Assembly (NCBI GenBank): GCA_964387205.1 | Contig: CAYLVY010000003.1 | Coordinates: 17,006 to 79,565 of the forward strand | Origin: an uncultured Draconibacterium sp. | Lineage (GTDB): Bacteria > Bacteroidota > Bacteroidia > Bacteroidales > FEN-979 | DNA length: 62,560 nucleotides | Direction of reading: 5' to 3' | In this document: piece after piece, positions 3,218 through 53,696 of the stretch | Layout of the letters: every line of letters begins with the position of its first letter | Numbering within the stretch: position 1 is the stretch's first letter | Notes under the pieces: model-generated | Told to the model about the DNA's origin: nothing | Seen by the model: only the letters and a program-made list of their open reading frames with translations | The model's database searches: none | Position numbers and translations under genes: made by a program

Positions 3218-3249
3218 ATTTATGAACCAAAACCAATAACCCCGCTGCT

Positions 3250-6224: not shown

Positions 6225-6274
6225 GACCGTACGATGATTTGTTCTGAATATAAATCAACTGAAAATATAGTTCC

Positions 6275-8565: not shown

Positions 8566-8580
8566 TGGTGCTGAACAACT

Positions 8581-36180: not shown

Positions 36181-36186
36181 AGAGGA

Positions 36187-36194
36187 CAAATATA
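36187..36194 (-). promoter_or_regulatory. Candidate -7 box (TATATTTG on the minus strand) immediately upstream of rpoN
   Basis: The plus strand reads CAAATATA. It lies 7 nt upstream of the ATG at 36180 and inside the longer ORF-track start. Confidence 0.25.
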
Positions 36195-36339
36195 GCAATT
36201 TATTTTACTGACAGAATGGGCAATCGTTGAAAAATGAACTCCGGAGGGTAAAAACCGGCCAGTTGTCTATTTTTCGGAAAACCAAGGTGAAAATTGGTTA
36301 ATTTCGCCTTGGTTTCATTCCCCTGACACCTTTAAAAAC

Positions 36340-38087: not shown

Positions 38088-39417
38088 ACCGTTGTTATTA
38101 AGTATTTTGCTGTTGATATCCGGAATCACGGCCGCACAGACCCGGTTGTGGACTTTCCGCCAGTGCCTCGATACGGCCCTGGTCCGAAATATCACCATCA
38201 ACCAGACCCGGTACAGCAATGAACTCGACAAAGTCCAGCTTGCCCAAACCAAATCGGCACGCATCCCAAGTTTGAATGCCAGCGCGGGAGAGGCGCTGAA
38301 CCTTGGGAAAAATGTCGATCCCACCACCAACACGTTCGTGACTGAAGCCTATCACAGCACCAACATGGGCATCGCGAGCAGCCTCACCCTGTTCAACGGG
38401 TTACAGACCACCAATACGATCCGCCAGCAACGGTTGAATGTGGAAGCAGGGGAGTATGAGACCGGGAAGGTGAAGAATGATATAACCCTTAACATCACCA
38501 CAGGGTATCTCCAGGTATTATTTGCCAAAGAGATCCTGGCTTCGGCAAAAATTCAGGAAGAGGCTACTGCGGCACAGGAGGAGAGAACAGAAAAGTGGGT
38601 CAATGCTGGTAAGGTACCCGAAAACGACCTGCTGCAGATCAGGTCGCAACTTGCCTCCGACAGGCTGGCGGTCATCAATGCCGAAAATCAGCTTGACCTG
38701 TCAAAGGTAACCCTGATGCAACTGATGGAAATACCGGTGACAGCAGGATTTGATGTGGTAACGCCGGAACTTGAACTTTTAGTGGTTGAAGTGCCGCTGT
38801 CCAACGAACAGATATTTGAAAAATCGCTGACGGTCCAGCCACAGATCACGGGCGCCATGCTTCGTTCCAGTGCCTCAGATATGGCGCTGCGGGTTTCCGA
38901 AGGTGCCAGATGGCCCAGGGTTACTTTCGGGGCCAATCTCAATACCAATTTCGCCTCCGGCAGAAAAAAAAGCGCTGTCAATCCCGAAATGTATCCGTTT
39001 TTTGAACAAATATGGGATAATATCGGACAATCCTTCACCATGGGGCTGACTATTCCGGTTCACAGCAACCGTCAGATCAAAAGCAATATCGAGCGGGCAA
39101 AGATCAACCTGGCCACAACAAGGCTCAATGAAATGAACGTGCGGAACACATTGAGGAAAAATGTGGAACAAACCTGGGCCGATGTCAGGGCAGCCCAAAA
39201 AAAATACGATGCGGTCCGGCAGCAGGTTATCGCCATGGAAGCCTCATACCGCAATGCTGAAACGAAGTACGAGGTCGGTGTTATGCATGCCACCGATTTC
39301 CTGATCCAGAAAAACAATTATGAACAGGCAAAATCGAGCCTGATCCAGGCTAAATATGACTACATTTTCAAGCAGAAGATCCTCGGATTCTATCAGGGAA
39401 CTCCCATTGAATTCTGA
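38077..39417 (+). CDS. TolC-family outer-membrane efflux protein
   Basis: Signal peptide (MFRKPLLLSILLL), duplicated OEP repeat pattern and coiled coils. The start is refined to the ATG at 38077. The ORF track begins at 38014. Confidence 0.85.
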   Translation: MFRKPLLLSILLLISGITAAQTRLWTFRQCLDTALVRNITINQTRYSNELDKVQLAQTKSARIPSLNASAGEALNLGKNVDPTTNTFVTEAYHSTNMGIASSLTLFNGLQTTNTIRQQRLNVEAGEYETGKVKNDITLNITTGYLQVLFAKEILASAKIQEEATAAQEERTEKWVNAGKVPENDLLQIRSQLASDRLAVINAENQLDLSKVTLMQLMEIPVTAGFDVVTPELELLVVEVPLSNEQIFEKSLTVQPQITGAMLRSSASDMALRVSEGARWPRVTFGANLNTNFASGRKKSAVNPEMYPFFEQIWDNIGQSFTMGLTIPVHSNRQIKSNIERAKINLATTRLNEMNVRNTLRKNVEQTWADVRAAQKKYDAVRQQVIAMEASYRNAETKYEVGVMHATDFLIQKNNYEQAKSSLIQAKYDYIFKQKILGFYQGTPIEF

Positions 39418-39448
39418 CCGGGATAAATTGAAAAACAACAACTTACAG

Positions 39449-40753
39449 ATGAAAAAAAGAACTTGGATTATCATTGCGGTGACTGTTCTTGCAGTGGTGG
39501 CAGCCGGTGTCTGGTTTCTGGCCGGCGGTAAAAAGAAGGAAAACATTGAATGGCGTACGGCAAAAATCGAAAAAGGAGACCTTCAGGTAACCGTCAGGGC
39601 CAGTGGAACGCTGCAGGCCGTCACCACCGTGCAGGTGGGCACCCAGGTCTCAGGTATCATTGAGAATATTTTTGTCGACTTCAATTCAGAAGTCAGGGCA
39701 GGACAGGTGATCGCCCTGCTCGACACCACTTTGCTGGCCCAGGCGGTGGAAGATGCCCGTGCATCTTTGCGGCGCACCGAGATACAGCTGAACCAGGCGC
39801 GCCGGGAATATGAACGCACCAAAGTCCTGTTTGAACAAAAAGTCATGGCCCAATCCGATTACGACCTCGCGCTGACCAGTTACGAAACCGCCGAAACCAA
39901 TATGATCTCGGCACGTTCAACCCTGAACCGCGCCATGATCAATCTGAAATACGCCACCATCAGGGCTCCGATCTCCGGAGTGGTCGTTTCCCGTGCCGTG
40001 GATGTAGGCCAGACAGTAGCCGCGAGTTTCAGCACCCCCACCATGTTCACCATTGCCAACGACCTGACCAAAATGCAGGTAGAAGCCAACATCGACGAGG
40101 GAGATATCGGCAAGATCAGGATGGACCAGGAGGTCACCTTCACCGTGGACGCATATACAGAAACTACCTTCACCGGGACTGTCAGGCAAATCAGGCTCCT
40201 GCCGGTCGTAACCCAGAATGTCGTCAATTATACCGTTATCATCGATGTCCCTAATCCCGATCTGAAACTTTTACCGGGTATGACCGCCAATATTACCGTG
40301 ATGGTGGATGAGGTGAAAGATATTCTGAAAGTACCTGCCACTGCACTTCGGTTCTCTCCTCCGCAAGAGTATATTGATGCCTATGAGGCAGGATTGCCCG
40401 ATTCGGTTAAGAAAATGCGGGAGATGAGGTCTGGGGGAGGCCGGTCCGGGGTCACAGGAGCAGAGGGTTCTATGGGCGCTCCGGGTGGCATGTCCGGACA
40501 GGGAGGTATGAGAAGTTCGGGGATGAAACGTACCTTTGGTACCATATGGGTGAAAAATGGCGATTCCCTGATCCCCCACCGGGTCAGGACCGGTGCTACC
40601 GATGGCCTCAACACGGAGGTGAAAGGCAGAAAAATTCAGGAAGGCGATGAAGTGGTTCTGGGAATGACGACAGTTCAGGATGGTAAAACGGGCCAGCAGC
40701 AAACCAATCCGTTTGCCCCCCCGTCATCGAGAGGCTCAAGGGGAGGAAGGTAG
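39449..40753 (+). CDS. Efflux periplasmic adaptor (HlyD/MacA-like) with a Gly/Met-rich insertion
   Basis: N-terminal TM, then GTLQAVTTVQVGTQVSGII...AGQVIALLD (lipoyl/biotinyl-like hairpin) and IRAPISGVV. The start is refined to the ATG at 39449. Confidence 0.85.
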   Translation: MKKRTWIIIAVTVLAVVAAGVWFLAGGKKKENIEWRTAKIEKGDLQVTVRASGTLQAVTTVQVGTQVSGIIENIFVDFNSEVRAGQVIALLDTTLLAQAVEDARASLRRTEIQLNQARREYERTKVLFEQKVMAQSDYDLALTSYETAETNMISARSTLNRAMINLKYATIRAPISGVVVSRAVDVGQTVAASFSTPTMFTIANDLTKMQVEANIDEGDIGKIRMDQEVTFTVDAYTETTFTGTVRQIRLLPVVTQNVVNYTVIIDVPNPDLKLLPGMTANITVMVDEVKDILKVPATALRFSPPQEYIDAYEAGLPDSVKKMREMRSGGGRSGVTGAEGSMGAPGGMSGQGGMRSSGMKRTFGTIWVKNGDSLIPHRVRTGATDGLNTEVKGRKIQEGDEVVLGMTTVQDGKTGQQQTNPFAPPSSRGSRGGR

Positions 40754-40754
40754 G

Positions 40755-41510
40755 ATGGAAAATGTTGTTATTTCGGTTAAATCCCTGGTGAAAACCTACC
40801 ATATGGGTGATGTGGAGGTCCATGCCCTCCGGGGTGTCAGCCTCGATATCGGCAAAGATGATTTCGTGGCGATCATGGGAAAAAGCGGTTCAGGGAAATC
40901 GACCTTCATGAATATATTGGGCTGCCTTGATGTTCCGACGAAGGGAACATACCATCTCGATGGCGTGGATGTTTCAGCCCTGGGAAAGGATCAACTTGCC
41001 CTTCTTCGAAACCATAAGATCGGGTTTGTTTTTCAGTCGTTTAATTTATTGTCCCGTACCTCCGCCCTGGAAAATGTGGAACTTCCGCTGATGTATAATA
41101 AAAAGATCAGTACGCGGGAGATGAAAGAGCGCGCCATGAGTGCCCTGGAAGCGGTAGGACTCGCCGGCCGGGCGCACCATTTTCCCAACCAATTGTCGGG
41201 AGGTGAGCAGCAACGTGTCGCCATCGCCCGTTCCCTGGTCAACCAGCCCGTCGTGATCCTCGCCGATGAACCCACCGGAAACCTGGATTCCCGGACTTCG
41301 CTGGAGGTGATGGGAATTTTTCAACGATTGAACAACCAAGGCATTACGGTGGTCATTGTCACACATGAACCCGACATCGCCGCCTTTACCAAACGCAACG
41401 TAACCTTTCGCGACGGGAAGATCATCCGGCTTTTCGATGTAAAACAACCCCGTAAAGCCATGGAAGAACTGTCTTTGCTGCCTGTAACCGCTGAGGAGGA
41501 AGAAGAATGA
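40755..41510 (+). CDS. ABC transporter ATP-binding protein (MacB/LolD type)
   Basis: Walker [10 protein letters not shown], signature [15 protein letters not shown] and Walker [12 protein letters not shown]. The start is refined to the ATG at 40755. Confidence 0.9.
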
Positions 41511-42727
41511 AGATAAAAAACCTGCTCATCGCCGCGCTGAGATCGCTGGCCAAAAATAAGATGAGGACCTTTCTGACCATGCTGGGAATTATTATCGGTG
41601 TCGCCTCCGTCATCGCCATGCTCGCCATCGGCCAGGGATCGCGGCAAAGCATCCAGGCGCAGATATCGACCCTTGGGACCAATGTGCTGATGATCTGGCC
41701 GCAGGCAAGCAGTTCCGGAGGTGTGAGGATGGAAGCCGGTTCATCCCAGCGTATGAGCATTGAGGATGTAAACATCATCCGTGAACGGTGCCCTTCGGTG
41801 GCGATGATCACCCCTCAGGCAAGGACCAGCGGACAGCTTGTGAACGGGAATACCAACTGGCGCACTTCAGTGTATGGGGTTTATCCCGATTATTTCGAGA
41901 TCCGCAACCTCAAACTGATCAGCGGCAACATATTTACCATGCTCGACGACCGAAGCGCCACCAAGGTATGCGTGATCGGGCTGACCGTCGTGGAAAACCT
42001 CTTTGGTCAAAATGCAGATCCGGTGGGCGCTTTCATCCGCATCAATAAAATTCCTTTCAAAGTAATCGGTATTCTGGAAAAAAAAGGACAAAATGCCTAT
42101 GGTCAGGATCAGGATGATATTGTGATCGCTCCGTTTTCCACGGTACAAAAGCGGATGATGGCCATTACCCATGTGCAGAGCATGCTGGCCTCCGCAGCTT
42201 CCGAAGCCCTGATTCCGACTGCCACTTCCGAGATCACCGATGTGCTCAAGGCCAAAAGGAACCTGGGGCCCTCCGAGGATCCAGATTTCACCATACGGAC
42301 CCAGACCGACATTGCCAATACCGCCACGGCCACCTCAAAGATCATGACGGTACTGCTGGCCACCATCGCCAGTATCTCCCTGCTGGTGGGAGGGATCGGC
42401 ATCATGAACATCATGCTGGTCTCGGTAACCGAACGTACCCGCGAAATAGGGATCCGGATGAGTGTAGGGGCCAGGGGACGCGATGTCCTGCTCCAGTTTC
42501 TGATCGAAGCACTGTTGATCAGCTTTATAGGTGGTATGATCGGCGTACTTCTCGGAGTAGTGGTTTCCAATATCATTACCAGCGTACTTACCTGGCCGGT
42601 ATCCATTACCCTCCCTTCTATCCTGATGTCGTTCCTGTTCTCCTCGGTAATCGGGGTTTTCTTCGGATGGTACCCTGCAAGAAAGGCTGCCAGGCTGAAC
42701 CCGATCGAAGCGTTACGCTACGAATAA
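41507..42727 (+). CDS. ABC transporter permease (MacB_PCD + FtsX domains)
   Basis: 406 aa. One TM, a periplasmic domain of about 220 aa, then three TMs. FtsX motif GIGIMNIMLVSVTERTREIGIRMSVGA. ATGA overlap with the ATPase gene. Confidence 0.9.
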   Translation: MKIKNLLIAALRSLAKNKMRTFLTMLGIIIGVASVIAMLAIGQGSRQSIQAQISTLGTNVLMIWPQASSSGGVRMEAGSSQRMSIEDVNIIRERCPSVAMITPQARTSGQLVNGNTNWRTSVYGVYPDYFEIRNLKLISGNIFTMLDDRSATKVCVIGLTVVENLFGQNADPVGAFIRINKIPFKVIGILEKKGQNAYGQDQDDIVIAPFSTVQKRMMAITHVQSMLASAASEALIPTATSEITDVLKAKRNLGPSEDPDFTIRTQTDIANTATATSKIMTVLLATIASISLLVGGIGIMNIMLVSVTERTREIGIRMSVGARGRDVLLQFLIEALLISFIGGMIGVLLGVVVSNIITSVLTWPVSITLPSILMSFLFSSVIGVFFGWYPARKAARLNPIEALRYE

Positions 42728-42849
42728 GGTTATCGGGAATAGTAAATCAATGTATGACTGAAAGATAGCAACTTGTCCACCGTTGCTGTTGAAAACTATT
42801 GCAAAACCGTTGACGGGCTGATTTTTAAAAGTGTTAATTTGCGCCCGCT

Positions 42850-44832
42850 GTGGACTTTCTCTGGTTGCTCGCACCGGTAATTCTGACCTTGTTCATCCTG
42901 CTTTTATCCGACAGGTGGAGGTATTATTATACCCTGGGATTTCACCTGACCTTTGCCGCATATTCCACCTGGCTTGCCGTTCCGGTACTGACAGGTATGA
43001 TAACGGCCGCCCATCTGGTTTTCACGGGAAGTCCTGAAGGGACGCCGATATTCACACTGGACCCTCTGAGCGCTTTTTTTATCCTGCTGACCAATTTCAC
43101 CATTCTCACCGGGCTTCTTTTTGCTCGGGGGTACCTGGCCCCTTACCGCAGCCGGAAAGGCGAAACCCCCATGGCGCTCCATCTGTTCGCCTATACCTGG
43201 CTCTATCTGTCGATGCTCGCTGTGCTGACCCTCCGGGAAGGCAGTGCCTTTCTGATCGCCTGGGAGTTGATGGGGCTCTCCTCTTTCCTGCTTATCTTAT
43301 TTGAAGGAGAGGTGCGAACCACCCTGAAAACGGCCGTCAACTACCTGATCCAGATGCATATCGGCTTGGTTCTTATCCTTGTGGGATTTCTTATGGCAGA
43401 AAATACCACAGGACTTTTCGGGTTTGACGGCATTGCCCTTTACTTCACCACCAATCCCAACCTGCCCCTGTTTTTGATCCTCTTTGCCGGATTTGCTTTC
43501 AAAGCCGGTTTTATTCCTTTTCATACGTGGCTCCCCCTGGCACACCCGGCAGCCCCTTCCCACGTATCCGGGGTGATGTCGGGTGTGATGATCAAAATGG
43601 GGATCTTCGGGATCTACCGCCTGCTGATATCCCTTGAATCGCAGCAAACAGTCATCGGCATCATCCTCCTCACCATCGCTGCCGTCACCGGTCTTTACGG
43701 CATTTTACAAGCTTCTGCGCAACAGGACCTGAAAAAGATGCTGGCCTGTTCCACCATCGAAAATGTCGGTATTATCGGGATGGGCATGGGGGTCGGGACC
43801 ATCGGTCTCGGTACCGGCAATCTCCCCGTGACCATCCTTGGTTTCGGCGGCAGCCTGCTGCATACCCTTAACCACTCGTTTTTCAAATCCCTGTTATTCT
43901 ACGGTGCCGGTGCCGTTTATCATGCCACCCACACCCGCAACATGGACCTGATGGGAGGGCTGATCAAACATATGCCCCGGACCGCCACCCTGTTTCTGAC
44001 AGGATCTGCCGCCATTTGCGCCCTGCCGCCCCTCAACGGCTTTGTCTCCGAAGTGCTCATCTATTATGGCCTTTTCGCCGGCCTTCAATCCGGATCTTTT
44101 TATATCACGCTTCTGATGATGCTGGGCATCATCGCCCTCGCACTGATCGGCGGACTATCCATTTTCAGCTTTACCCGCACCTTCGGGACCGTTTTTCTGG
44201 GGTCGCCGCGAAGTGTTTATTCAGACGGGACCGTGCGTGACTACCCCGGGATGGTACTCCCCATGTCCCTCATCCTGATCCCCATATTGTTGATCGGTCT
44301 GGCCCCCGTTTGGTTCATTCCCTGGATCATGCCATATACCGGCAACCTGCTGGGCATTGATGCCGCATCGGTTGCAGTTCCCCTGGGGGAAGCCCTCACC
44401 CGCATCAGCCTGATCGGGGGAGTACTTGTATTAATGATCATCGCCATTCTGCTGCTCAGAAAAAGGGCAGGAATACAAAGAAAAACAGAAGAAGGCCCCG
44501 TTTGGGGATGCGGATACACCGCTCCGGGCCCACGACAACAGTACACCGCATCCTCCTTTGCGGCAAATATAACCGAACTCGCGCACCCCATCCTGCGCCC
44601 TTCCGATGAATTCACACCCGTGCAGGAAGAGGAGATTTTCCCCACCCCGCGCGCCTTCAAAAGAAAAACCCGGGATATTATCGACTCCCTGCTTACTGCC
44701 ATGGCCGTTTTTGGCAATAAGGCCTTGCGCAACGCAGCCCGGCTCCAGACCGGAAATATCCAGCACTATATACTCTATGCCTTCATTTTCATGCTCTTTC
44801 TTTTCACCCTTTTAGCATTGAACCTGATATGA
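42850..44832 (+). CDS. HyfB/NuoL/MrpA-like antiporter-type membrane subunit
   Basis: 660 aa. WELMGLSSFLLI, FKAGFIPFHTWLPLAHPAAPSHVSGVMSGVMIKMG and DLKKMLACSTIENVG. GTG start. Confidence 0.85.
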   Translation: MDFLWLLAPVILTLFILLLSDRWRYYYTLGFHLTFAAYSTWLAVPVLTGMITAAHLVFTGSPEGTPIFTLDPLSAFFILLTNFTILTGLLFARGYLAPYRSRKGETPMALHLFAYTWLYLSMLAVLTLREGSAFLIAWELMGLSSFLLILFEGEVRTTLKTAVNYLIQMHIGLVLILVGFLMAENTTGLFGFDGIALYFTTNPNLPLFLILFAGFAFKAGFIPFHTWLPLAHPAAPSHVSGVMSGVMIKMGIFGIYRLLISLESQQTVIGIILLTIAAVTGLYGILQASAQQDLKKMLACSTIENVGIIGMGMGVGTIGLGTGNLPVTILGFGGSLLHTLNHSFFKSLLFYGAGAVYHATHTRNMDLMGGLIKHMPRTATLFLTGSAAICALPPLNGFVSEVLIYYGLFAGLQSGSFYITLLMMLGIIALALIGGLSIFSFTRTFGTVFLGSPRSVYSDGTVRDYPGMVLPMSLILIPILLIGLAPVWFIPWIMPYTGNLLGIDAASVAVPLGEALTRISLIGGVLVLMIIAILLLRKRAGIQRKTEEGPVWGCGYTAPGPRQQYTASSFAANITELAHPILRPSDEFTPVQEEEIFPTPRAFKRKTRDIIDSLLTAMAVFGNKALRNAARLQTGNIQHYILYAFIFMLFLFTLLALNLI

Positions 44833-45818
44833 CCGGAACCTTGCTCGCCCTGATTACCGCTGTTTTTTTCCCGGGAGTGATCCTGCGGGTGAAAAGCCTG
44901 GCCAGCGGCAGGAAAGGCCCGGGAATTTTACAACCATGGAAAAATATCCTGCTGCTGCTGAGAAAAGGAAGTGTGATCAGTCCCGTCACCAGTTATGTTT
45001 TTCGCCTTGCCCCCGTCATCTGGCTATCCACCGTAGCTACGGCGCTGCTGCTGCTGCCCTTCCCGGGGATCTCATCCCCTTTTGGCTTTGAGGGCGATTT
45101 CGTCCTGATGGCTTACCTGCTCGCCCTTGGAAAATTTCTGTTTATTCTCGGCGCCCTCGATACAGGCAGTAGTTTTGAAGGCATGGGGGCAAATCGGGAA
45201 GCACTGTATTCGATGCTGGCCGAACCCGCCTTCTTCATCCTGTTCGGCACAATGGCCCTGCTGACAGGCCATACCTCCATGCAGTCGATCTTCGAATCAT
45301 TCCGTTTCGCCGGCCATAGTTCTTATATCATAGGATTCATCGCCGTTTACCTGCTGATGCAGATCGCCATGGTCGAGAACAGCCGTATGCCTGTCGATGA
45401 CCCCAAAACACACCTTGAACTGACCATGGTACACGAAGTCATGATCCTCGACCACAGTGGGTTCGACCTGGCGCTGATCCATATCGGTACGCACCTGAAA
45501 TTCGCGCTCTACGGGATGCTGATCGCCAACTTCCTGATCCCGGCCGAAGGGGTGACCATCATCCGCAACGCCGGGATGAACATCACCGGCGCCACCAGCG
45601 GTATTGTAAACCCGGGAACTACCGGCTGGATCATACTCTCTCAGATCCTGGCTTTCCTGACCATTCAGGTGATCTTCGCCTCCATGATCGGCTTTGCCGA
45701 ATCGTTCCGCGCCCGGAAAAAGATGTCCCGCAACCCGCAGTTTATCGTCACACTTGCCTCTGTTGCCCTGGTTGCTTTCGTTCTGGTTGTATTGATGACC
45801 TTTAACATGATCGGATAA
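44829..45818 (+). CDS. NuoH/HycD/HyfC-like membrane subunit
   Basis: About 8 TM helices. The loop RMPVDDPKTHLELTMVHEVMILDHSG corresponds to the RxPFDxxExExEL...EYSG loop of NuoH/HycD. ATGA overlap with the upstream gene. Confidence 0.8.
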   Translation: MTGTLLALITAVFFPGVILRVKSLASGRKGPGILQPWKNILLLLRKGSVISPVTSYVFRLAPVIWLSTVATALLLLPFPGISSPFGFEGDFVLMAYLLALGKFLFILGALDTGSSFEGMGANREALYSMLAEPAFFILFGTMALLTGHTSMQSIFESFRFAGHSSYIIGFIAVYLLMQIAMVENSRMPVDDPKTHLELTMVHEVMILDHSGFDLALIHIGTHLKFALYGMLIANFLIPAEGVTIIRNAGMNITGATSGIVNPGTTGWIILSQILAFLTIQVIFASMIGFAESFRARKKMSRNPQFIVTLASVALVAFVLVVLMTFNMIG

Positions 45819-45819
45819 T

Positions 45820-46437
45820 ATGGAAGTGCTGCTGATCATCACATTCGCCGTAACACTGATCTACCTCAGCATGACCGAGCGCTTCCCTATCTATGCCGGA
45901 TTGATCGGGTTTCAGGGAGTCCTCCTTTTTGCACTTTCATTTCTCGAACTGGATACCATTACCCCCGGAACTTTATTGTTTGTTGCATCTGAGACACTGG
46001 TTTTCAAGGTTTTAATCGTACCGTGGCTGCTGTTCCGGATCATCCGGAAAACCGGAGAAACCCGTGTCCATGAAAAAGCGCTGCCGGGATTTTATTCGCT
46101 GCTCTTTATATCCCTTGGGCTGCTGCTGAGCATCGTCATCAGTTATTCGATGAAAAGTTCCCCATCAAACATGATCTATTTCATCGTAGCCCTGTTTGCC
46201 GTCTTTACAGGTATGTTCATGATCATTTCACACCGTAAGATATTCTCCCACCTCGTCGGATTCCTCGTGATCGAAAATGCGGTACTCCTCCTGTCGATGG
46301 CCATCGGAAGCGAAATGCCCATGCTGATCAACGTAGGAATTTTGCTCGATATCTTTGTCAGTGTGCTGATCCTGGGAATATTCGTAATGAGACTGAAACA
46401 ACATGCCAGCGACCTGACCCTGCTGAAGGATGACTGA
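45820..46437 (+). CDS. HyfE-like small membrane subunit (NuoK-related)
   Basis: 205 aa with 6-7 hydrophobic helices. Its position matches hyfE in hyf-type operons. The start lies 1 nt after the preceding stop. Confidence 0.6.
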   Translation: MEVLLIITFAVTLIYLSMTERFPIYAGLIGFQGVLLFALSFLELDTITPGTLLFVASETLVFKVLIVPWLLFRIIRKTGETRVHEKALPGFYSLLFISLGLLLSIVISYSMKSSPSNMIYFIVALFAVFTGMFMIISHRKIFSHLVGFLVIENAVLLLSMAIGSEMPMLINVGILLDIFVSVLILGIFVMRLKQHASDLTLLKDD

Positions 46438-47887
46438 AGACCTGAAGACCATGAGCAACGATTTGATTCTGATCGGATTTTTCATTGTATCGGTGACATC
46501 CGCCGCCCTGGCGGGATTGATCCGATCCAAACCATGGGTCCGTGCGATTACCATTCTTTTCACCCTTTGCCATATCGCCTTTACACTTTTCGGATGGTAT
46601 CACCTGGAGGAGACATTCCTCTCCTATTTCACTTTCGACCCGCTGGGAATGTTGCTGTTGTCCATTCTTTCCATACTGACGGTCACCACCGTCTATCATG
46701 GCTTTCTTTATGTCAGGGATGATACTCCTGCCAACTATTCGGTGTATCACGCTGCGCTGATCGCCCTCGTAACAGCCATGTCGGGGGCCTATCTTGCCAA
46801 TGGGATGACTACCGTGTGGATATTTGTGGAAGCAACCACCCTGGCCGTCGCCGCCCTGATCTATCACGACCGTACATCCTATGCCCTCGAAGCAACCTGG
46901 AAATATATCTTTGTCTGCTCGGTTGGCATCGCCCTGGCCTATCTGGGTATTCTCTTCCTGGGATTTACCGTGCAGGATTCCAGGCTATTGCACCTCTCGT
47001 TTACCAGCATCAGCGAAATAGCCCGGCTGGCCAACCCGCTCTACCTTAAAATCGCCTTTATATTCGTGCTCACCGGTTATAGTACCAAAATGGGACTTTT
47101 TCCCATGCATACCGTTACAGTAGATGCCCATACCGTATCGCCTCCGCCCATCAGTGCTTTTATTTCCACTACCCTGATGAATGTCGGCTTCCTGGCCATT
47201 TTCCGTATCTATTCCCTGTTCTCGGCCACCTCCGCCCTCCCTTTCATGAACAACGTATTGCTGATCTCCGGCTCCCTCTCCCTGCTGGTTGCCACAGGCT
47301 ACATGCTTAAAGCCAGACACAATAAACGGATGCTTGCTTACTCCAGCCTGGAAAATATGGGTATAGTGGCCATCGCCCTCGGGGTGGGAGGAATCGGATA
47401 TTATGCCGCCATCCTCCACATTATCCTGCACTCATTTACCAAAGCGGGCCTCTTTTACCAGATCGGACAATCCTACAAAGTGATGGGGTCCTACCAACTT
47501 GAAAAATCGGGACATTACATGGCACTCTATCCGGCCGGCGCCATCGCAATGCTGTTCGGTTTTGTCTGCATCACGGCAATTCCCCCTTCCGGAATGTTCA
47601 TCTCCGAACTGCTTCTCTTCAAAGCCCTGGCCGGCGCAGGGAAATGGTGGCTCCTGGCCTTTATATTGCTGCTGCTGACCTTTGTGATCTATGCCCTCAT
47701 CACCCGTGCATTGCATATCCTCTTTTCCGCTCCGCGTGAAAAACCACTCCACGAACCACAGAGTGTCAACCCGTGGCAAACGGTTACCCAATACCTTCTT
47801 TTCGGAATGGTGGCCGCCATCTGCTTCTTTCAGCCTCCTGCGCTTCACCGCCTCATCGAATCAGTCATCCAAACCCTGGTACCATGA
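46430..47887 (+). CDS. HyfF/NuoN/MrpD-like antiporter-type membrane subunit
   Basis: 485 aa. KMGLFPMHTVTVDAHTVSPPPISAFISTTLMNVGFLAIFR and MLAYSSLENMG are proton-pumping-subunit motifs. 8-nt overlap with the upstream gene. Confidence 0.85.
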   Translation: MTEDLKTMSNDLILIGFFIVSVTSAALAGLIRSKPWVRAITILFTLCHIAFTLFGWYHLEETFLSYFTFDPLGMLLLSILSILTVTTVYHGFLYVRDDTPANYSVYHAALIALVTAMSGAYLANGMTTVWIFVEATTLAVAALIYHDRTSYALEATWKYIFVCSVGIALAYLGILFLGFTVQDSRLLHLSFTSISEIARLANPLYLKIAFIFVLTGYSTKMGLFPMHTVTVDAHTVSPPPISAFISTTLMNVGFLAIFRIYSLFSATSALPFMNNVLLISGSLSLLVATGYMLKARHNKRMLAYSSLENMGIVAIALGVGGIGYYAAILHIILHSFTKAGLFYQIGQSYKVMGSYQLEKSGHYMALYPAGAIAMLFGFVCITAIPPSGMFISELLLFKALAGAGKWWLLAFILLLLTFVIYALITRALHILFSAPREKPLHEPQSVNPWQTVTQYLLFGMVAAICFFQPPALHRLIESVIQTLVP

Positions 47888-49407
47888 CAGAAGCGGCACA
47901 CTACACAGAAATTCTGACCAATCCCGGTACTGTACCGCTGGCAGATATTCCCGTCCTCCCCTATGACGATTTCTGCGACTTCGCCGATCTGCTCATGCGG
48001 GAAGAGGGTACCCATTGCCTGACATACTTCGTTTTACATGAACCGGGCCATTTCCGCTTTATTTGCTGTATGGCGGCAGATGAAAATCATGCCGTGGTGC
48101 TCTTCTCCCACCTTCAGCCCGATGACCCGATCCCCGTACTGCCCTCCCTCACAGCCCGTCATTGCCAGTTTCACGGATTCGAAAGGGAGATCCATGAAAA
48201 ATTCGGGATTGGTTTTACCGGCCATCCATGGCTCAAACCAATCCGGTGGCCTTTCGACCGTGCCGGTATCATCCCTGACATGAACAATTATCCTTTCTGG
48301 AAATGCACGGGTGAAGAGCTGCACGAAGTCGGTGTGGGTCCTGTTCATGCCGGGATCATTGAACCGGGCCACTTCAGGTTTACCTGTTCCGGAGAACTGG
48401 TCCACCACCTCGAGATACACCTTGGGTACCAGCACCGCGGGGTGGAATCCCTCTTCAGCAGGTTTCCGAAAGTGATCCAACAAGCAGTTCTTTCGGAAAG
48501 TATTGCCGGTGATACCGCCATTGGTCATGCCCTTGCCTATGCCGGTATCGCCGAAGCCCTTGGGAAGATCAGGGTACCGGATGAACTGCAGTTGCAAAGG
48601 GCTGTTGCACTCGAACTGGAACGGATCGCCATTCATATCGGAGACACCGCCGCCCTATGCAATGATGTCGCCTACCAGTTGGGACAAGTGGTGTGTGAAG
48701 CGCTCCGCACCATCGTCATTAACACCACTCAGTTATGGTGCGGGAACCGGTTCGGTAAAGGAATGGTACGACCGGGAGGAAGCCATTATCCGCTGACCGG
48801 TTCCCTTGCCAGTGCCATACTGGAAAACCTGGAGGATGTCATCTCTCGGTATGAACAGATGACCGAACGGATATTTTCCCTTCCGAGTGTGCTGGGACGG
48901 TTTGAAGGAACCGGAAAAATTACCACGATGCAGGCCTCCCTGGCCGGCGCTGTGGGTATGGCTGCACGCAGTGCGGGCATGTACCGGGATATCCGCTGGT
49001 CGCATCCTTACGGTGCTTACCGTCAGTTTTCTTCGGAACCGGTGATTTTGCCCGGAGGGGATGTCCACGCGCGGGCTCTCCTGCGACAATTGGAAGCCGG
49101 TAACTCTTCCCGGCTGATCAAAACCATGCTGGGCTCACGAAATCCAAACGAAACCATCCCGGAACCCTGTTCCGGTATCTCTTTGCAACCTTCTACGCTG
49201 GCCATTTCCATGACGGAAGGATGGCGGGGAGAGATCTGTCACGCTGCTGTTACGGATGAAGCGGGACGGCTGAAACTATACAAGATAAAGGATCCGTCGT
49301 TCCACAACTGGCTGGCCCTGGCACTGGCCGTACGCCATCAGGAAATCTCTGATTTCCCGTTGTGCAATAAAAGTTTCAACCTCAGTTATTGCGGAAACGA
49401 CTTATGA
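47884..49407 (+). CDS. NuoC-NuoD fusion / HycE-HyfG-like large subunit lacking the NiFe cysteines
   Basis: NuoC-like N-domain (FHGFEREIHEKFGIGFTGHPWLKP). NuoD/large-subunit core (GPVHAGIIEPGHFRF...LGYQHRGVE). At the RxCGxCxxxH site it reads ESIAGDTAIGH; at the DPCxxCxxR site it reads SFNLSYCGNDL. The start is refined to the ATG at 47884 (ATGA overlap). Confidence 0.85.
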   Translation: MTEAAHYTEILTNPGTVPLADIPVLPYDDFCDFADLLMREEGTHCLTYFVLHEPGHFRFICCMAADENHAVVLFSHLQPDDPIPVLPSLTARHCQFHGFEREIHEKFGIGFTGHPWLKPIRWPFDRAGIIPDMNNYPFWKCTGEELHEVGVGPVHAGIIEPGHFRFTCSGELVHHLEIHLGYQHRGVESLFSRFPKVIQQAVLSESIAGDTAIGHALAYAGIAEALGKIRVPDELQLQRAVALELERIAIHIGDTAALCNDVAYQLGQVVCEALRTIVINTTQLWCGNRFGKGMVRPGGSHYPLTGSLASAILENLEDVISRYEQMTERIFSLPSVLGRFEGTGKITTMQASLAGAVGMAARSAGMYRDIRWSHPYGAYRQFSSEPVILPGGDVHARALLRQLEAGNSSRLIKTMLGSRNPNETIPEPCSGISLQPSTLAISMTEGWRGEICHAAVTDEAGRLKLYKIKDPSFHNWLALALAVRHQEISDFPLCNKSFNLSYCGNDL

Positions 49408-50171
49408 TGAAAGAATTTTCCATATGGCGACGGCACGGGAAACAATTCGTCCCTGATTTGCGCAATGCTGTCCTTCCCGATATTTTCCGCGGTCGTCCCG
49501 TAATCGCAGCCGACATTTCAGGGGAGGAGGCAAAAGCTGCAGCAGAATGCTGCCCGGTGGACGCTATCCGCACAAATCCATGCACCCTCGACCTGGGCCG
49601 GTGTGTTTTTTGCAGGGAATGTACCTTTCTCAGTGGCGAAAAAATAAAATTCACGCGCGATTTCCGGATGGCCACCAATAACCGCAACGATCTGATCATC
49701 AGACAGGGAGAAGACAAACCGATACGGATCGACGATGCGAAGGTAAGAAAAGAGGTCGGAACACTCTTTCGTCACGCACTCAAATTAAGACAGGTTTCAG
49801 CCGGCGGCGACAATTCGGCCGAGATGGAGCTCAATGCAGCCGGCAATGTCAATTTCGACATGGGAAGATATGGAATCGAATTTGTAGCCTCCCCCCGCCA
49901 TGCCGATGGTGTGGTGATCACCGGGCCTGTCTCCGCCAACATGTCAGAAGCGCTTGAAATCTGCTACCATTCCATTCCCATGCCCCGGATCATCATTCTT
50001 GCCGGTAGTGATGCCATCGGAGGAGGCCTTTTCCAGGAAAGCCCCGCCATAAACCGGCAATTTTTATCGCAATATCCTGTAGATCTTTTTGTTCCCGGAA
50101 ATCCTCCTCACCCTCTCACTTTCATAAACGGGATACTGGACCTCACACGCGGATCACTTTTTCCCAAGTAA
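49404..50171 (+). CDS. NuoB/HycG-HyfI-like small subunit lacking all four [4Fe-4S] cysteines, fused to an N-terminal ferredoxin-like remnant
   Basis: FVASPRHADGVVITGPV is conserved. Against E. coli HycG recalled from memory, CGGCNGCE reads AGGDNSAE, GACG reads GSDA and PGCPP reads PGNPP. The N-terminal part carries ECCPVDAI and CVFCREC. The start is refined to the ATG at 49404, overlapping the upstream stop. Confidence 0.85.
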   Translation: MMKEFSIWRRHGKQFVPDLRNAVLPDIFRGRPVIAADISGEEAKAAAECCPVDAIRTNPCTLDLGRCVFCRECTFLSGEKIKFTRDFRMATNNRNDLIIRQGEDKPIRIDDAKVRKEVGTLFRHALKLRQVSAGGDNSAEMELNAAGNVNFDMGRYGIEFVASPRHADGVVITGPVSANMSEALEICYHSIPMPRIIILAGSDAIGGGLFQESPAINRQFLSQYPVDLFVPGNPPHPLTFINGILDLTRGSLFPK

Positions 50172-52049
50172 AAGATAATGCCTCCAGTCGAACACCAGGC
50201 GAAATCCCCCGTACCAGATGCTTTTCACCGGCGGGAAAGGATCCCCTTCGTCCAGAATAACTTTTCGTTTACCCGGGATATCCAACCCTGCGTGCAACTG
50301 CAGTTTCATGTTGGCCCCCTGCCTGGCACCATAAATGCGTAAAAAACGGTATTCGACAACTGGAAACTCCAATTGCGTCGAATACATGGTGATCAGGGTT
50401 TGTTCATCCTGCACCCCTTTCTTTCCCAGGATCATATGATCAGGGCCCTCGCCGGTGCCATACATGCAAACTCCGACCTCGCGGCCAAGGATAAACTGAA
50501 ACCTCCCGATGGGTGTGGTAATGCCCGACTGCCATGGAAGTAACCCCCCGTTCCCGGCGGTAACGATCATTTTATTGAGGGTGGCAGGAGATGACAACAG
50601 CAGGACAGGGGCGGCCACGAGCAGATCGCCGGGAAGAAGGAAGAAAGGCAGTCTTAACCTCATATACCAGGCATCACGGCCGGGAATGGCAGTCATATAG
50701 GACCCAAACTGCTTCAGCTCCGGATCATCTTCGATGGAGATCGAACTGGAACTTTCAAGCCTCCAGCCCAGGTCCAGAAAGGCCAGTCCATCACCTGATT
50801 CGTTGACCACTCCGTCCATTCCAAGCCCGACACGCAGCGCCATTTCCAGACCCGGGATCACTCCGGTTGATCTTTGCCTTGTCCCGAAACCGCCGTCATG
50901 AAAATGAACATGCAAAGCCGGGGCGATGCCGATAAAGGGACCCAGTTCGGCATTGATGCGCGGAAGGGCACCCAGTCCGGTAGCCAGCCCCGGAGCAGGA
51001 GTGCCTGCAAGCACCTGGTTGCATCGGTAATCGATGGCCGGACTGACGAGGCGATAGATATGAACCTTGGCAAGACTGACATTAAGGGTATCCGGCATCA
51101 TAACGTCTACATCCTCCACGACATCTTCCTTCAGGTCATTTCCGGCAGCGGCGTCCAGCACCTGGGTTAGGCTGATCAGCACCGCATCAGCGGCTTCATC
51201 AATATCCTGAGGCCGGATATAGGCATCGCCGGTGAGGATGATCTTCCGGCCATTCCAGGTCGTCACCTGCAGGCCGGCTTCATTGTAATAATCGTGAGTC
51301 CCCTTGCGCTGGGAAGCGTCACCCCATATTCCGGCCACATGACCGGCGGCAAAATTATCCTCCAGGAAATGAAGGGCAAAAGCCTCATCGGCCAGCATGC
51401 TCAGGGCGATACTGCTTCGTTGCTCCGGGGTCAGACCGGGAGAAGCCAGGCGCTTTGCTTTGATCAACGCGCTGTTATGGAACCAGGTATAAATACCTAC
51501 GATGTTCAGGGGGGCGCCGGGTTTGCAACAGGAATCAAAGTAGGCAGCGGCACCAATATCTACATTGGGTAATGCCATCAGAAAATGGCCGAAATTATTG
51601 CCGGCCCGGGCAATATAATCGGGATCGGCACGCAGCAGCCGGATATCGGAATCCCTCAGACGATTGATCCGCTCACTCTCATTGCGGGCAGTGGCGATGC
51701 CCTCGCCAAGCTGGGCGCCGATCGAGGCCACTTTCATGATCCATTCCGAATGGAGAATGATCCGGAGCATGTCGTCGGGTGATGCCGAATGGTCACCGCC
51801 AATAGCCGGCCAGGTGACAAAATCAAGTTGTTCCGGATGTAATCCCTGTTGGTCTTCCATCACTCCGGGAAACAATCTGGCCTCATGGCCCTTTCGCGCT
51901 GCAGTCCATAGTGCATCCAGCAGCGCTCTGTGTTGCGGGTCAAGCCTTTCGACAGCAGTCCGGGTGATATCCCGGTGCTCGGGAAATACCCATGCATATC
52001 CATTCCAGCCGGCCAGCAGGAACGTCAGGATAAATAGAAACTTTTTCAT
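50154..52049 (-). CDS. Secreted 631-aa protein of unknown function, possibly with a zinc-dependent PLC / S1-P1-like N-terminal domain
   Basis: Signal peptide (cleavage near GYA-W). The N-terminal W-x5-H (WVFPEHRD), GGDHS, HFLEDNFAAGH and THDYYNE motifs loosely resemble PLC/P1-nuclease metal ligands. The C-terminal half of about 300 aa is beta-rich. The 3' end overlaps the Ehr operon end by 18 nt. Confidence 0.5.
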   Translation of the reverse strand: MKKFLFILTFLLAGWNGYAWVFPEHRDITRTAVERLDPQHRALLDALWTAARKGHEARLFPGVMEDQQGLHPEQLDFVTWPAIGGDHSASPDDMLRIILHSEWIMKVASIGAQLGEGIATARNESERINRLRDSDIRLLRADPDYIARAGNNFGHFLMALPNVDIGAAAYFDSCCKPGAPLNIVGIYTWFHNSALIKAKRLASPGLTPEQRSSIALSMLADEAFALHFLEDNFAAGHVAGIWGDASQRKGTHDYYNEAGLQVTTWNGRKIILTGDAYIRPQDIDEAADAVLISLTQVLDAAAGNDLKEDVVEDVDVMMPDTLNVSLAKVHIYRLVSPAIDYRCNQVLAGTPAPGLATGLGALPRINAELGPFIGIAPALHVHFHDGGFGTRQRSTGVIPGLEMALRVGLGMDGVVNESGDGLAFLDLGWRLESSSSISIEDDPELKQFGSYMTAIPGRDAWYMRLRLPFFLLPGDLLVAAPVLLLSSPATLNKMIVTAGNGGLLPWQSGITTPIGRFQFILGREVGVCMYGTGEGPDHMILGKKGVQDEQTLITMYSTQLEFPVVEYRFLRIYGARQGANMKLQLHAGLDIPGKRKVILDEGDPFPPVKSIWYGGFRLVFDWRHYLLLGKK

Positions 52050-52064
52050 GGCCTTCAGGATCAG

Positions 52065-52439
52065 TTAGTTGTTTGGGGCTCCGGCGTCAATCCACTTTTT
52101 GATACGGCTAAGATCGCATCCGGGTAATTTCGACAATCCTTCCGGCATGGGACGATAGCCGGGTTCATGGTTTACCGAACCCCAGAGTTTTCCGTTCCGG
52201 ACCAAAACCTGTAAGCCGGCATAGGTATCGGTGATCCATCCCCCATTCGCACCGGCTCCGGAATGACAATCATTGCAGGAAGTCTTCATCAATGGAGCGA
52301 CTGTCAGAAGATAAGTGACGCCGGTGGGGTCACAGTCCGACGGGATGGCGATATCCTGCAGGTTGTCGCTGGCACAAGAAAACAGGAATGCCATTAAAAT
52401 CAACACAATAAAAGCCTTTTTCAGCATTTTTCCAATCAT
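52065..52439 (-). CDS. Lipoprotein with a single heme-c motif (PSCyt1-like cytochrome c domain)
   Basis: MIGKMLKKAFIVLILMAFLFSC lipobox, CNDCH heme-binding motif, and C-terminal LSRIKKWIDAGAP typical of PSCyt1-type domains. The start is refined to Met25/Met29 of the ORF-track protein. Confidence 0.65.
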   Translation of the reverse strand: MIGKMLKKAFIVLILMAFLFSCASDNLQDIAIPSDCDPTGVTYLLTVAPLMKTSCNDCHSGAGANGGWITDTYAGLQVLVRNGKLWGSVNHEPGYRPMPEGLSKLPGCDLSRIKKWIDAGAPNN

Positions 52440-52733
52440 ACGGGATGAAATATTTAAATATCGTTCAGACAAATATAGTGATTTTAAAACAGGGCCGCAT
52501 CTCTTTACCACTAAATGCCATTTCTTAACTAAAGGTATTTCCAGGCATGTTACCTCCTACTGTTAAACAAAAACATGTTTATTTTACACTTATTTGGTAT
52601 TTTAAATTATTATTTTTATTCTTCAGTAAGAATTATTCTTTTTTAATAAATTTACTATCAGTCAGTTATAAGGAAATCTTGTTTCATTCAACTAATTTGT
52701 TACCAAAGTGTTGCAAACAAATACCAAATGACC

Positions 52734-52741
52734 TATATTTG
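52734..52741 (+). promoter_or_regulatory. Candidate -7 promoter box TATATTTG in an AT-rich divergent intergenic region
   Basis: Exact TAnnTTTG match, 38 nt upstream of the ATG at 52779. Confidence 0.4.
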
Positions 52742-52778
52742 TGAATGCATTCACATTCAATTTTCTTAACCTGATGAT

Positions 52779-53696
52779 ATGAAAAACTTTATGCTCTTTC
52801 TGTTGTGCCTGGGACTGGGCACGGCAACGTTGTCTGCCCAGGAGGTGATTGTCACCGATGATCCCGCTTACACCACACCGGCATCCGGTTCCGTACTGGA
52901 TGTGAAATCAACGACAAAAGGGATGATTATCCCACGGATGACGACCGCCCAGCGTACCACCCTGGGAAGTACCACCCCGGCCGACGGCGTGGTGGTCTAT
53001 GATACCGATCTGGCCTCGTTTTACTACTGGGACCACACCGAATGGAAACAAATTGCGGCTTCAGGGCTCAACCTGACCAACTACAAATTCGGGGACGGCA
53101 CCAATTATTCAACATTTGAAGCCGATGGCACCCTCGTTTTTTACGGCGATGCCACTGTTTGGGATGACATCATGATCCCGGGATTCTCGACCAGAAGCAG
53201 TACAAATTCCCCTGACTTTGCAGTTTTTGTTAACGGGACCTATCTGAATTACTTTGCTGATGCAGGTTCCAACAGTGAAAACCAGGTCTTCTTCACGGCC
53301 CAGTTCCCGCATGCATGGGATGGCGGGGAGATCCGGCCCCACATCCACTGGTCGCCGGAAACCGATCCCGGTACAGCCGCCGTTGTCCGGTGGGGGCTGG
53401 AATATACCTGGGCAGAGTATAATCCCACTACACCGGAAACATTTCCGGCCACCACCACCATTTATACCAACGCCTCAACTCCTGCCGGCAGCCAGAAAAA
53501 ACACCTGATCGCTTCCTTTTCCCCCATCACACCTTCCTCCACTCAGGATGGCATCAGCAGCATGATGGTGTGCCGGCTCTTCCGGAACTCGAGCGATGCT
53601 GCTGATACATATAACAGCAAGAGAGCAGGGTTTCTTCAGTTCGACATCCATTACAAGAGAAATACTGAAGGCAGCCGTACCGAATTTATAAAATAA
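52779..53696 (+). CDS. Secreted protein of unknown function
   Basis: Signal peptide (TLSAQE). N-terminal module LDVKSTTKGMIIPRMTTAQRTTL...GVVVYDTDLASFYYWDHTEWKQI. The C-terminal half of about 190 aa is beta-rich. Confidence 0.7.
   Translation: MKNFMLFLLCLGLGTATLSAQEVIVTDDPAYTTPASGSVLDVKSTTKGMIIPRMTTAQRTTLGSTTPADGVVVYDTDLASFYYWDHTEWKQIAASGLNLTNYKFGDGTNYSTFEADGTLVFYGDATVWDDIMIPGFSTRSSTNSPDFAVFVNGTYLNYFADAGSNSENQVFFTAQFPHAWDGGEIRPHIHWSPETDPGTAAVVRWGLEYTWAEYNPTTPETFPATTTIYTNASTPAGSQKKHLIASFSPITPSSTQDGISSMMVCRLFRNSSDAADTYNSKRAGFLQFDIHYKRNTEGSRTEFIK

Follow-up and report, generated by a model that had tools for sequence, protein, structure and literature searches.

An Ehr-type small subunit of Bacteroidales that retains ligands for one iron-sulfur cluster and carries Asp, Ala, Asp and Asn at the proximal-cluster site

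The stretch of DNA analysed here (the window) covers 62,560 nucleotides of a contig from an uncultured Draconibacterium sp., and the last gene of a six-gene operon within it encodes a fused small subunit, in which a NuoI/HycF-like ferredoxin domain precedes a NuoB/HycG-like domain. We can state firmly that this gene encodes the small subunit of an Ehr (Ech/energy-converting-hydrogenase-related) complex. All four ligand positions of its proximal (N2-equivalent) [4Fe-4S] cluster are occupied by residues other than Cys, its ferredoxin domain retains four invariant cysteines that correspond to the ligand set of a single cluster, and the partner large subunit is devoid of NiFe ligands. The gene is strongly conserved in Bacteroidales, and comparison with fused relatives indicates that the distal and the proximal clusters were each lost repeatedly and the middle cluster never, a pattern that appears to be new. 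Ehr complexes are reportedly the subject of work by Coppi in 2005 and by Marreiros et al. in 2013; with these two sources outside the comparison, the complete loss of proximal and distal ligands in a large conserved Bacteroidales clade appears to be unreported.

The small subunit and its replaced proximal-cluster site

The small subunit is called with the same length of 255 residues in public assemblies. Its ATG overlaps the TGA of the upstream large-subunit gene (ATGA), an arrangement which suggests that the two genes are translationally coupled. In sequence as well as in fold, the C-terminal domain is a member of the NuoB/group 4 small-subunit family. Pfam PF01058 (Oxidored_q6) matches residues 140-246 with 63.6 bits against a cutoff of 27, and the best phmmer match is P. 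furiosus MbhJ (6cfw_J, E 8e-24, residues 130-245). NCBIfam NuoB models were also detected (best 1.4e-24), all of them under their curated cutoffs; the top model, NF005012, scores 86.5 bits against a cutoff of 116, which places the protein outside that subfamily or equivalog. An AlphaFold2 model built from a 67-sequence alignment (pLDDT 93.4, pTM 0.90) was used to search the PDB with Foldseek, and the top matches were HycG (7z0s_G, E 5.6e-11) and MbhJ (6cfw_J), on which the C-terminal domain superposes with a target TM-score of 0.82 and a root-mean-square deviation of 2.1 Å. The Foldseek matches of this model involved the NuoB domain only, and the ferredoxin domain gave no match of its own.

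The earlier note on this DNA, made by a model that read only the sequence, had described a NuoB-like subunit with all four cluster cysteines lost and two of the positions turned into Asp. Direct alignment with E. coli K-12 HycG bears this description out, and the three HycG motifs given in it, along with all the coordinates, proved to be exact. HycG VDCGGCNGCEIE corresponds to VSAGGDNSAEME in the query (nt 49800-49823), YGACGNSGG to AGSDAIGGG (with GSDA at 50004-50015) and IPGCPP to VPGNPP (50094-50108). The phmmer alignment with MbhJ agrees with that of HycG and places D136, A139, D203 and N233 at the proximal cysteines. The first Cys of HycG CGGCNGC was not found in MbhJ or in Cys-complete relatives, and the ligand positions are therefore 136, 139, 203 and 233. 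The four proximal [4Fe-4S] (N2/G1) cysteines by which the NuoB family is recognised are thus absent, and with four non-Cys residues, two of them Asp, we consider it firm that the small subunit would be unable to bind a canonical proximal cluster, as the note had also argued.

From 5.8 billion proteins searched, thousands of matches were obtained, and the best 120 of these, all full-length, were used for conservation counts (referred to below as close homologs). They are 61-100% identical to the query, and the named ones come from Bacteroidota or from Bacteroidales metagenome-assembled genomes. The NuoB-like domain contains long invariant runs among them. D136 and N233 are each present in 120/120 and D203 in 117/120, while position 139 is Ala in 90 and Cys in 12. 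The homologs with a lone Cys139 at the abolished site (D-C-D-N in place of D-A-D-N; P0060, P0087, P0119 and others) could have kept it as a leftover or re-acquired it.

These counts bear on the idea that a proximal FeS cluster is still bound in a non-canonical manner, through the Asp carboxylates and, in some homologs, Cys139. Ligation of a [4Fe-4S] cluster by a single Asp is known in other proteins, and the 12 close homologs with Cys139 are also in its favour. Against this, none of the four positions is Cys in the query or in most homologs, Ala139 and Asn233 are unable to ligate iron in the usual sense, and an FeS cluster bound solely through Asp, Asn and Ala is not known to us. We regard such a cluster as very improbable.

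The ferredoxin domain and its four cysteines

That the N-terminal ~100 residues form a NuoI/HycF-type ferredoxin, as proposed in the same note, is supported by alignments with both proteins. E. coli NuoI (7awt_I) aligns to residues 22-101 (E 4e-4), and the NCBIfam NuoI, HycF and HyfH models give weak, sub-cutoff matches at residues 6-101 (best TIGR01971, E 9.4e-6). NuoI-type flanks are still visible (FRGRPVI; FTRDFRMATNNRNDLI), and the NuoI-like similarity outside the Cys motifs comprises an N-terminal FRGRP and a C-terminal F/LT.DF...R.DL segment. Cys-complete fused relatives tie the domain unambiguously to 8-Cys ferredoxins. The AlphaFold2 model places a helix at residues 2-11, which resembles the amphipathic N-terminal helix known for HycF and for all complex-I-superfamily structures (PMC9474812).

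Of the two CxxCxxCxxxCP motifs typical of NuoI and HycF (8 Cys, two clusters), neither is complete in the query. Motif 1 has had its CxxCxxC deleted or replaced, and motif 2 is without its terminal CP, the segment reading TFLSG. What is kept is the CP of motif 1 and the CxxCxxC of motif 2, which the earlier note had correctly recognised as the ligands of one cluster. In 2x[4Fe-4S] ferredoxins every cluster is held by three Cys of one motif and the CP Cys of the other, and because of this topology C50, C67, C70 and C73 make up one full ligand set. They are the sole invariant cysteines across 67 diverse homologs, down to ~29% identity. The note had reasoned that N-terminal cysteines not conserved in homologs would point to a decaying remnant; the opposite was found, all four being present in 120/120 close and 67/67 diverse homologs. 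The adjacent C49 is unconserved (Leu in 90/120 close homologs). A fifth cysteine, C60 (49581-49583), lies between the two surviving motifs and is shared by 94/120 close homologs and not by distant ones.

It is therefore firm that the small subunit has ligands for one [4Fe-4S] cluster, and we infer that C50, C67, C70 and C73 actually bind it. The retained cluster would be the medial one, at the N6b position adjacent to N2, an assignment based on ferredoxin topology and on T. thermophilus Nqo9, in which, according to what Sazanov and Hinchliffe reportedly described in 2006, the motif-1 CP Cys and the motif-2 CxxCxxC ligate N6b and the chain runs N6a-N6b-N2.

Conservation of the gene and operon

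In a scan of one genome per GTDB species, 207 genomes encode a relative of the small subunit, and the 80 loci retained from that scan belong nearly all to Bacteroidales metagenome-assembled genomes, e.g. Prolixibacteraceae, Lentimicrobiaceae and Rikenellaceae. The six genes keep their order, with the small subunit last, in nearly all of the ~65 Bacteroidales loci that have enough upstream sequence, and in these loci the small subunit is as conserved as the other five operon genes or more so. The small subunit and the operon are under strong purifying selection, and since this holds for the ferredoxin domain as well, the terms 'decayed' and 'remnant' used for it in the earlier note are misleading.

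A pseudogene-like gene or operon, drifting after the loss of hydrogenase activity and keeping its cysteines by chance, is accordingly hardly credible. The loss of three of the four ancestral metal sites would be in keeping with decay. The open reading frames (ORFs) are intact and appear translationally coupled, the small subunit keeps 60-88% identity over >100 homologs from Bacteroidales and is spread over those 207 species-level genomes, the four cysteines and the replacement residues are invariant, and the six-gene order is kept. Based on the conservation of residues, protein and operon, the decay reading was rejected.

The large subunit and assignment to Ehr

The partner large subunit is without NiFe ligands, a point missing from the earlier note. 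It is also called with 507 residues in public assemblies, and its best PDB match is HycE (7z0s_E, E 1e-30). In the L1 region, HycE RVCGICGFAH is replaced by ESIAGDTAIGH, with A208 and T211 at the ligand positions; in L2, DPCYSC is replaced by NLSYCG, with S501 and G504 at the ligand positions. The motifs that define group 4 hydrogenases (L1 RxCGxCxxxH and L2 DPCxxCxxH/R) occur neither in the query nor in 72 relatives of the large subunit. G209, D210 and H215 are conserved in these relatives, and the beta1-beta2 segment GPVHAGIIEPGHFRF is nearly invariant. Several cysteines that are not former ligands are also retained: among 73 sequences (the query and 72 relatives), C168 is present in 72, C259 in 73, C286 in 72, C494 in 65 and C503 in 73. 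They could be candidates for a new thiol/disulfide or metal site. The C-terminal motif DFPLCNKSFNLSYCGNDL is common to distant Ehr relatives whatever their FeS content. Complex I-type quinone reduction was set aside, since Gly is found at the position of Nqo4 Tyr87 and Ile at that of His38, and N2 is absent.

As the large subunit also lacks NiFe ligands, the whole operon can be placed in the known Ehr class. It encodes a group 4 NiFe-like large subunit without metal-binding Cys, a NuoH-like and a HyfE-like subunit, two Mrp/antiporter-like subunits, and both the NuoC-NuoD and the NuoI-NuoB fusions. The same components, i.e. the two fusions with HyfB, HyfF, NuoH and HyfE, constitute Ehr in Margulisbacteria (PMC6349859, Suppl. 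Note 4). The complex and the NuoI-NuoB fusion are thus already published, and of the earlier description, the fusion itself is real, but it is the ancestral architecture of Ehr small subunits and not special to this gene.

Loss of clusters among fused relatives

In a HMMER scan of 1.84 billion 50%-identity representatives, 1230 matched at E<=1e-10, and 71 full-length fused representatives were classified by their cysteines. All 12 Cys, i.e. 8 in the ferredoxin domain and four in the NuoB domain, are present in 15 of them, and 11 combine the four ferredoxin Cys of the query with four NuoB Cys. At least 8 others have the four ferredoxin Cys and an N2-less NuoB domain whose ligand set starts with Asp (DADN, DTDN, DNDH, DIDD, DVDS, DDKD, DEDS). 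The N2-less sets vary among lineages, with A/T/I/V/E at position 2, D/S/E/K at position 3 and N/D/S/H at position 4. The 11 lineages that combine the same four ferredoxin cysteines with an intact N2 site indirectly support the medial assignment made above, since a contiguous two-cluster wire results only if the kept cluster adjoins N2.

In a neighbour-joining tree, the Bacteroidales DADN clade and DTDN lie next to relatives with four ferredoxin Cys and an intact proximal set (4Cys+CCCC), followed by those with eight (8Cys+CCCC), and a second N2-less group (DIDD/DVDS/DEDS/TDES) is found elsewhere. After removal of the ligand columns, the N2-less sequences were monophyletic in 0/1000 bootstraps. 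The query is 46-48% identical to Cys-complete relatives as compared to 30-36% to the other N2-less lineage. Judged from these sequence relationships, the proximal cluster was likely lost at least two times independently, and Asp stands at the first ligand position in both N2-less groups (DADN/DTDN and DIDD/DVDS/DEDS). The contig L090 (that of homolog P0151; genes 1262-8701) shows another Ehr subfamily, with the gene order HycD-HyfE-HyfF-Large-Small-HyfB, in which the small subunit has DIDD at the ligand positions and the large subunit is without the CNKSF...CG motif; it appears to represent an independent loss of the proximal cluster.

The large subunits encoded with five distant fused relatives were found to be without NiFe ligands in all five cases. 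Four of the five (L086-L089) share an ESIAGDT-type L1 and DFPxCNKSF(N/D)LSYCGxDL, in combination with small subunits for three, two or one cluster. As this signature is constant across three-, two- and one-cluster relatives, the NiFe site was lost first and the clusters later.

In a further reading, D136, D203 and N233 would bind a new ligand in place of N2, either a cation such as Na+ or Mg2+/Ca2+ or a mononuclear transition metal. The peripheral arm would have its functional centre there, e.g. as an ion-sensing or loading gate of the membrane arm or as a Lewis-acid site for non-redox chemistry. Two carboxylates and an amide are a common ligand set for hard cations. The near-invariance of the three residues in close homologs is in favour of such a site, as are the independent N2-less lineages, in which position 1 is likewise D and positions 3-4 are D/E/S (DIDD, DVDS, DEDS, DDDS, DSSD), and in homologous complexes the site lies where three coupling loops converge. 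Positions 2-4, however, vary by lineage such that no family-wide ligand set exists, and clustering of flanking ORFs revealed no metal-trafficking gene linked to the operon. On this evidence a new metal site seems quite unlikely.

Operon, membrane arm and surroundings

The features of the operon and of its last two products are listed in Table 1.

Table 1. Coordinates of the operon genes and of the domains and motifs discussed in the text (positions refer to the window)
Feature	Position	Strand	Basis
HyfB/NuoL-like antiporter-like subunit, 660 aa, first operon gene	42850..44832	+	Proton_antipo_M 4.5e-49; hydrogenase 4 subunit B 1.2e-144 (sub-cutoff)
HycD/NuoH-like membrane anchor, 329 aa	44829..45818	+	NADHdh 4.9e-24; E. 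coli HycD 7z0s_D, E 3e-23
HyfE-like small membrane subunit, 205 aa	45820..46437	+	NCBIfam hydrogenase 4 membrane subunit 1.4e-12
HyfF/NuoN-like antiporter-like subunit, 485 aa	46430..47887	+	Proton_antipo_M 6.7e-41; hydrogenase 4 subunit F 2.7e-65
NuoC-NuoD/HycE-like large subunit, 507 aa	47884..49407	+	Pfam Complex1_30kDa and Complex1_49kDa
Former L1 NiFe motif, E205-S-I-A-G-D-T-A-I-G-H215	48496..48528	+	HycE and MbhL alignments
C-terminal motif C494-NKSFNLSY-C503-GNDL (former L2 region)	49363..49404	+	conserved in relatives
Fused NuoI/HycF-like and NuoB/HycG-like small subunit, 255 aa	49404..50171	+	Pfam, NCBIfam, phmmer; HycG/HycF and NuoI alignments
NuoI/HycF-like ferredoxin domain, aa 1-100	49404..49703	+	NuoI and HycF alignments; weak NCBIfam
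C50-P51, last Cys-Pro left of ferredoxin motif 1	49551..49556	+	invariant 120/120, 67/67
C67-x-x-C70-x-x-C73, first three Cys of ferredoxin motif 2	49602..49622	+	invariant 120/120, 67/67
NuoB/HycG-like domain, aa 130-249	49791..50150	+	PF01058, MbhJ alignment, Foldseek
D136-N-S-A139, former ligand positions 1 and 2	49809..49820	+	aligned to C-x-x-C of MbhJ/HycG
D203, former ligand position 3	50010..50012	+	aligned to Cys of GACG (HycG), GACP (MbhJ)
N233, former ligand position 4	50100..50102	+	aligned to Cys of PGCPP

The membrane subunits were compared across 59-71 relatives. In the HyfB-like subunit (59 relatives), the invariant residues E139, K218, K249 and E401 are candidates for the Glu of transmembrane helix (TM) 5, the Lys of TM7, the Lys of TM8 and the Glu of TM12, respectively. 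Candidates of this kind in the HyfF-like subunit are the invariant E134, K220 and E393, and in the HyfE-like one E58, K63, H138, H144, E152 and D177 are invariant. In the HycD-like anchor (66 relatives), the TM5-6 loop region VENSRMPVDDPKTHLELTMVHEV is almost invariant, and many charged residues are invariant. A pattern of TM5 Glu, TM7 Lys and TM12 Glu/Lys has been described for antiporter-like subunits of the superfamily, and with these residues in place the ion machinery of the membrane arm can be predicted to be intact.

The flanks of the operon differ between the loci of relatives, and flanking ORFs were clustered over ~75 loci. No redox partner (formate dehydrogenase (FDH), NuoEF, CooF or HycB) was found in the window, nor was any recurrent within 5 kb of the operon in these loci. 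Likewise, no hyp or hycI maturation gene was seen among the scanned window ORFs near the operon or among the recurrent flanking families. Recurrent neighbours were of two kinds only, namely genes for MacAB-type efflux in 10-13 loci and a small TPR-like ORF in 12. In the window, the operon is immediately preceded on its own strand by genes of MacAB-TolC-type efflux (38014-42727), which encode a TolC-like OEP, an HlyD-type adaptor, an ABC ATPase and a MacB/FtsX permease, and MacB, ABC and HlyD homologs adjoin the Ehr operon, either upstream or convergently downstream, in those 10-13 loci. This adjacency may reflect synteny within a lineage and not a functional link.

Upstream of the efflux genes, a sigma-54 gene on the minus strand and a LytTR-type histidine kinase/response regulator pair occupy 34690-38087. 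On the other side, an ORF of 631 residues (50154-52049, minus strand), which has no Pfam or NCBIfam match, runs towards the small-subunit gene and shares the last 18 nt of that gene; it is kept in near-identical contigs (L001-L003) and is not beside the operon in other relatives. Neither a scan for sigma-70 promoters ahead of the operon nor one of 42000-53000 with Rfam gave anything useful.

Possible mode of action

With the distal cluster, the proximal cluster and the NiFe site gone, no continuous electron path leads from the surface to the former catalytic pocket, and the cluster at C50/C67/C70/C73 would sit stranded at the medial position, the equivalent of N6b in complex I. We tentatively favour, with considerable doubt, a reading in which Ehr can do without the electron wire, the membrane arm is an Mrp-like ion translocator and the remaining cluster is a structural or sensing keystone. 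According to this proposal, the FeS wire would have become dispensable after the NiFe site was lost, and Ehr would operate independently of through-going electron transfer. The two antiporter-like subunits, together with HyfE and the NuoH-like anchor, would act as an Mrp-like ion or proton translocator, and the peripheral arm would be kept to hold the three coupling loops in the manner of a conformational cap. The remaining cluster would persist as the structural keystone of the ferredoxin domain, at the border with the NuoB domain, and may serve in addition to sense redox state or oxygen, and the acidic triad would fill and polarise the cavity vacated by the proximal cluster. The proposal that the wire is dispensable follows from its erosion from both ends in several lineages, the constancy of the large-subunit signatures and of the membrane arm, and the absence of a linked redox partner from the loci compared.

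Several observations weigh against this proposal. Binding of the retained cluster is itself deduced from residues. The tree on which the independent losses depend has modest support, 34-63%, for the relevant clades. Near-invariance is seen in the NuoB domain, in the TM5-6 loop of HycD and in the beta1-beta2 segment of the large subunit, which fits better with pocket chemistry or a ligand event than with a passive cap. That Asp came to occupy position 1 in at least two independent losses suggests selection for a specific chemical role and not the filling of a void. Further, a pure Mrp-like antiporter would have no obvious need for NuoH-, NuoD-, NuoC-, NuoB- and NuoI-like parts.

The main rival, which is possible though on the whole unlikely, is that the complex is a one-cluster redox enzyme. 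Deletion of the distal-cluster loops would expose the medial cluster to ferredoxin or flavodoxin, and a substrate, e.g. a menaquinone head group, a sulfur compound or another small oxidant, would bind in the former proximal site, ~10-14 Å away, where D136, D203 and N233 would donate hydrogen bonds or protons. Turnover would drive coupling through the three loops and the E-channel, and thus ion pumping, and would continue a trend seen in MBS, where the catalytic site moved onto the last cluster of the wire. Apart from this precedent, the invariance of the four cysteines in every lineage is in its favour, as are the convergent acidic residues at ligand positions 1 and 3 in independent losses and the near-invariance of the coupling loops and pumping residues, and the 4Cys+CCCC relatives show that a medial cluster can take up electrons when the distal one is missing. 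This rival accounts more readily than the favoured proposal for how strongly the NuoB domain and the coupling loops are conserved and for the Asp residues, whose recurrence appears convergent. Unlike the cluster in MBS, however, the retained cluster would be ligated by Cys throughout and have no open iron site; no donor, acceptor or maturation gene is conserved beside the operon in the ~75 loci; and the large-subunit signature is the same with or without a proximal cluster, which is hard to square with a changed pocket chemistry.

Significance

Ehr has been reported in Geobacter, Nitrospira, Sulfobacillus, CPR bacteria and Margulisbacteria. It is widespread, is encoded here in >200 Bacteroidales species-level genomes and stands between hydrogenases and complex I in evolutionary schemes. 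The existence of a large conserved one-cluster clade, along with the recurrent loss of the wire under a constant large-subunit signature, indicates that Ehr activity probably needs no electron relay from a donor to the pocket. The finding does not describe a new kind of system but sharpens the long-standing question of the role of Ehr. As a minimal-cofactor version, with a single centre expected to be active in electron paramagnetic resonance and a defined Asp/Asp/Asn site to mutate, the one-cluster Ehr is suited to asking how the peripheral arm communicates with the ion-translocating arm.

A more far-reaching possibility, which we consider unlikely, is a complex-I/hydrogenase-type machine without an electron wire, in which coupling is driven or gated by ion or metal binding or by non-redox chemistry at the Asp-rich site, or by one-electron switching of the orphan cluster. 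On that account, the FeS chain would have been dismantled repeatedly from both ends after NiFe loss, with the middle cluster kept and an Asp-rich site convergently installed at N2. If true, such a machine would extend the complex I superfamily by a new mode of operation.

Comparison with known systems

Among the characterised complexes, E. coli formate hydrogenlyase Hyd-3 (7Z0S) provides HycG, the best structural match, and recognisable HycF/NuoI motifs, and the neighbours of the small-subunit gene are homologous to HycC, HycD and HycE. HycG and HycF are separate proteins, and three [4Fe-4S] clusters (G1, F1, F2) feed the NiFe site (PMC9474812). The query, in contrast, is fused, lacks two of the three clusters as well as the NiFe ligands, and has no HycB/FdhF partner. 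P. furiosus MBH (MbhJ/MbhN), the source of the best sequence match, retains all three clusters. MBS (MbsJ/MbsN) is a precedent for NiFe loss with repurposing of the wire, its terminal cluster having become the catalytic site; it keeps three clusters and only loosens one proximal ligand (3 Cys), whereas in the query the proximal site is abolished.

With NuoB (N2) and NuoI (N6a/N6b) of complex I, the query shares the folds, the flanking motifs and the membrane pattern of TM5 Glu, TM7 Lys and TM12 Glu/Lys, but it is without the tandem-Cys N2 site, the quinone-site Tyr and the N-module. The antiporter-like subunits carry the same key charged residues as Mrp Na+/H+ antiporters, in which ion translocation is redox-free. 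Mrp, however, consists of the MrpA-G set and is without a NuoH-, NuoD-, NuoC-, NuoB- and NuoI-like peripheral arm, while the operon encodes two antiporter-like subunits and HyfE in addition to NuoH-, NuoC-D- and NuoI-B-like genes, so that Mrp is a functional analogy.

The closest known system is Ehr itself, which has the same six-gene set and whose function, stated as unknown in the literature, is without a published assignment. Compared to other fused Ehr small subunits, which have 12 or 8 Cys, that of the Bacteroidales clade is additionally without the proximal and distal ligands and is expected to hold one cluster.

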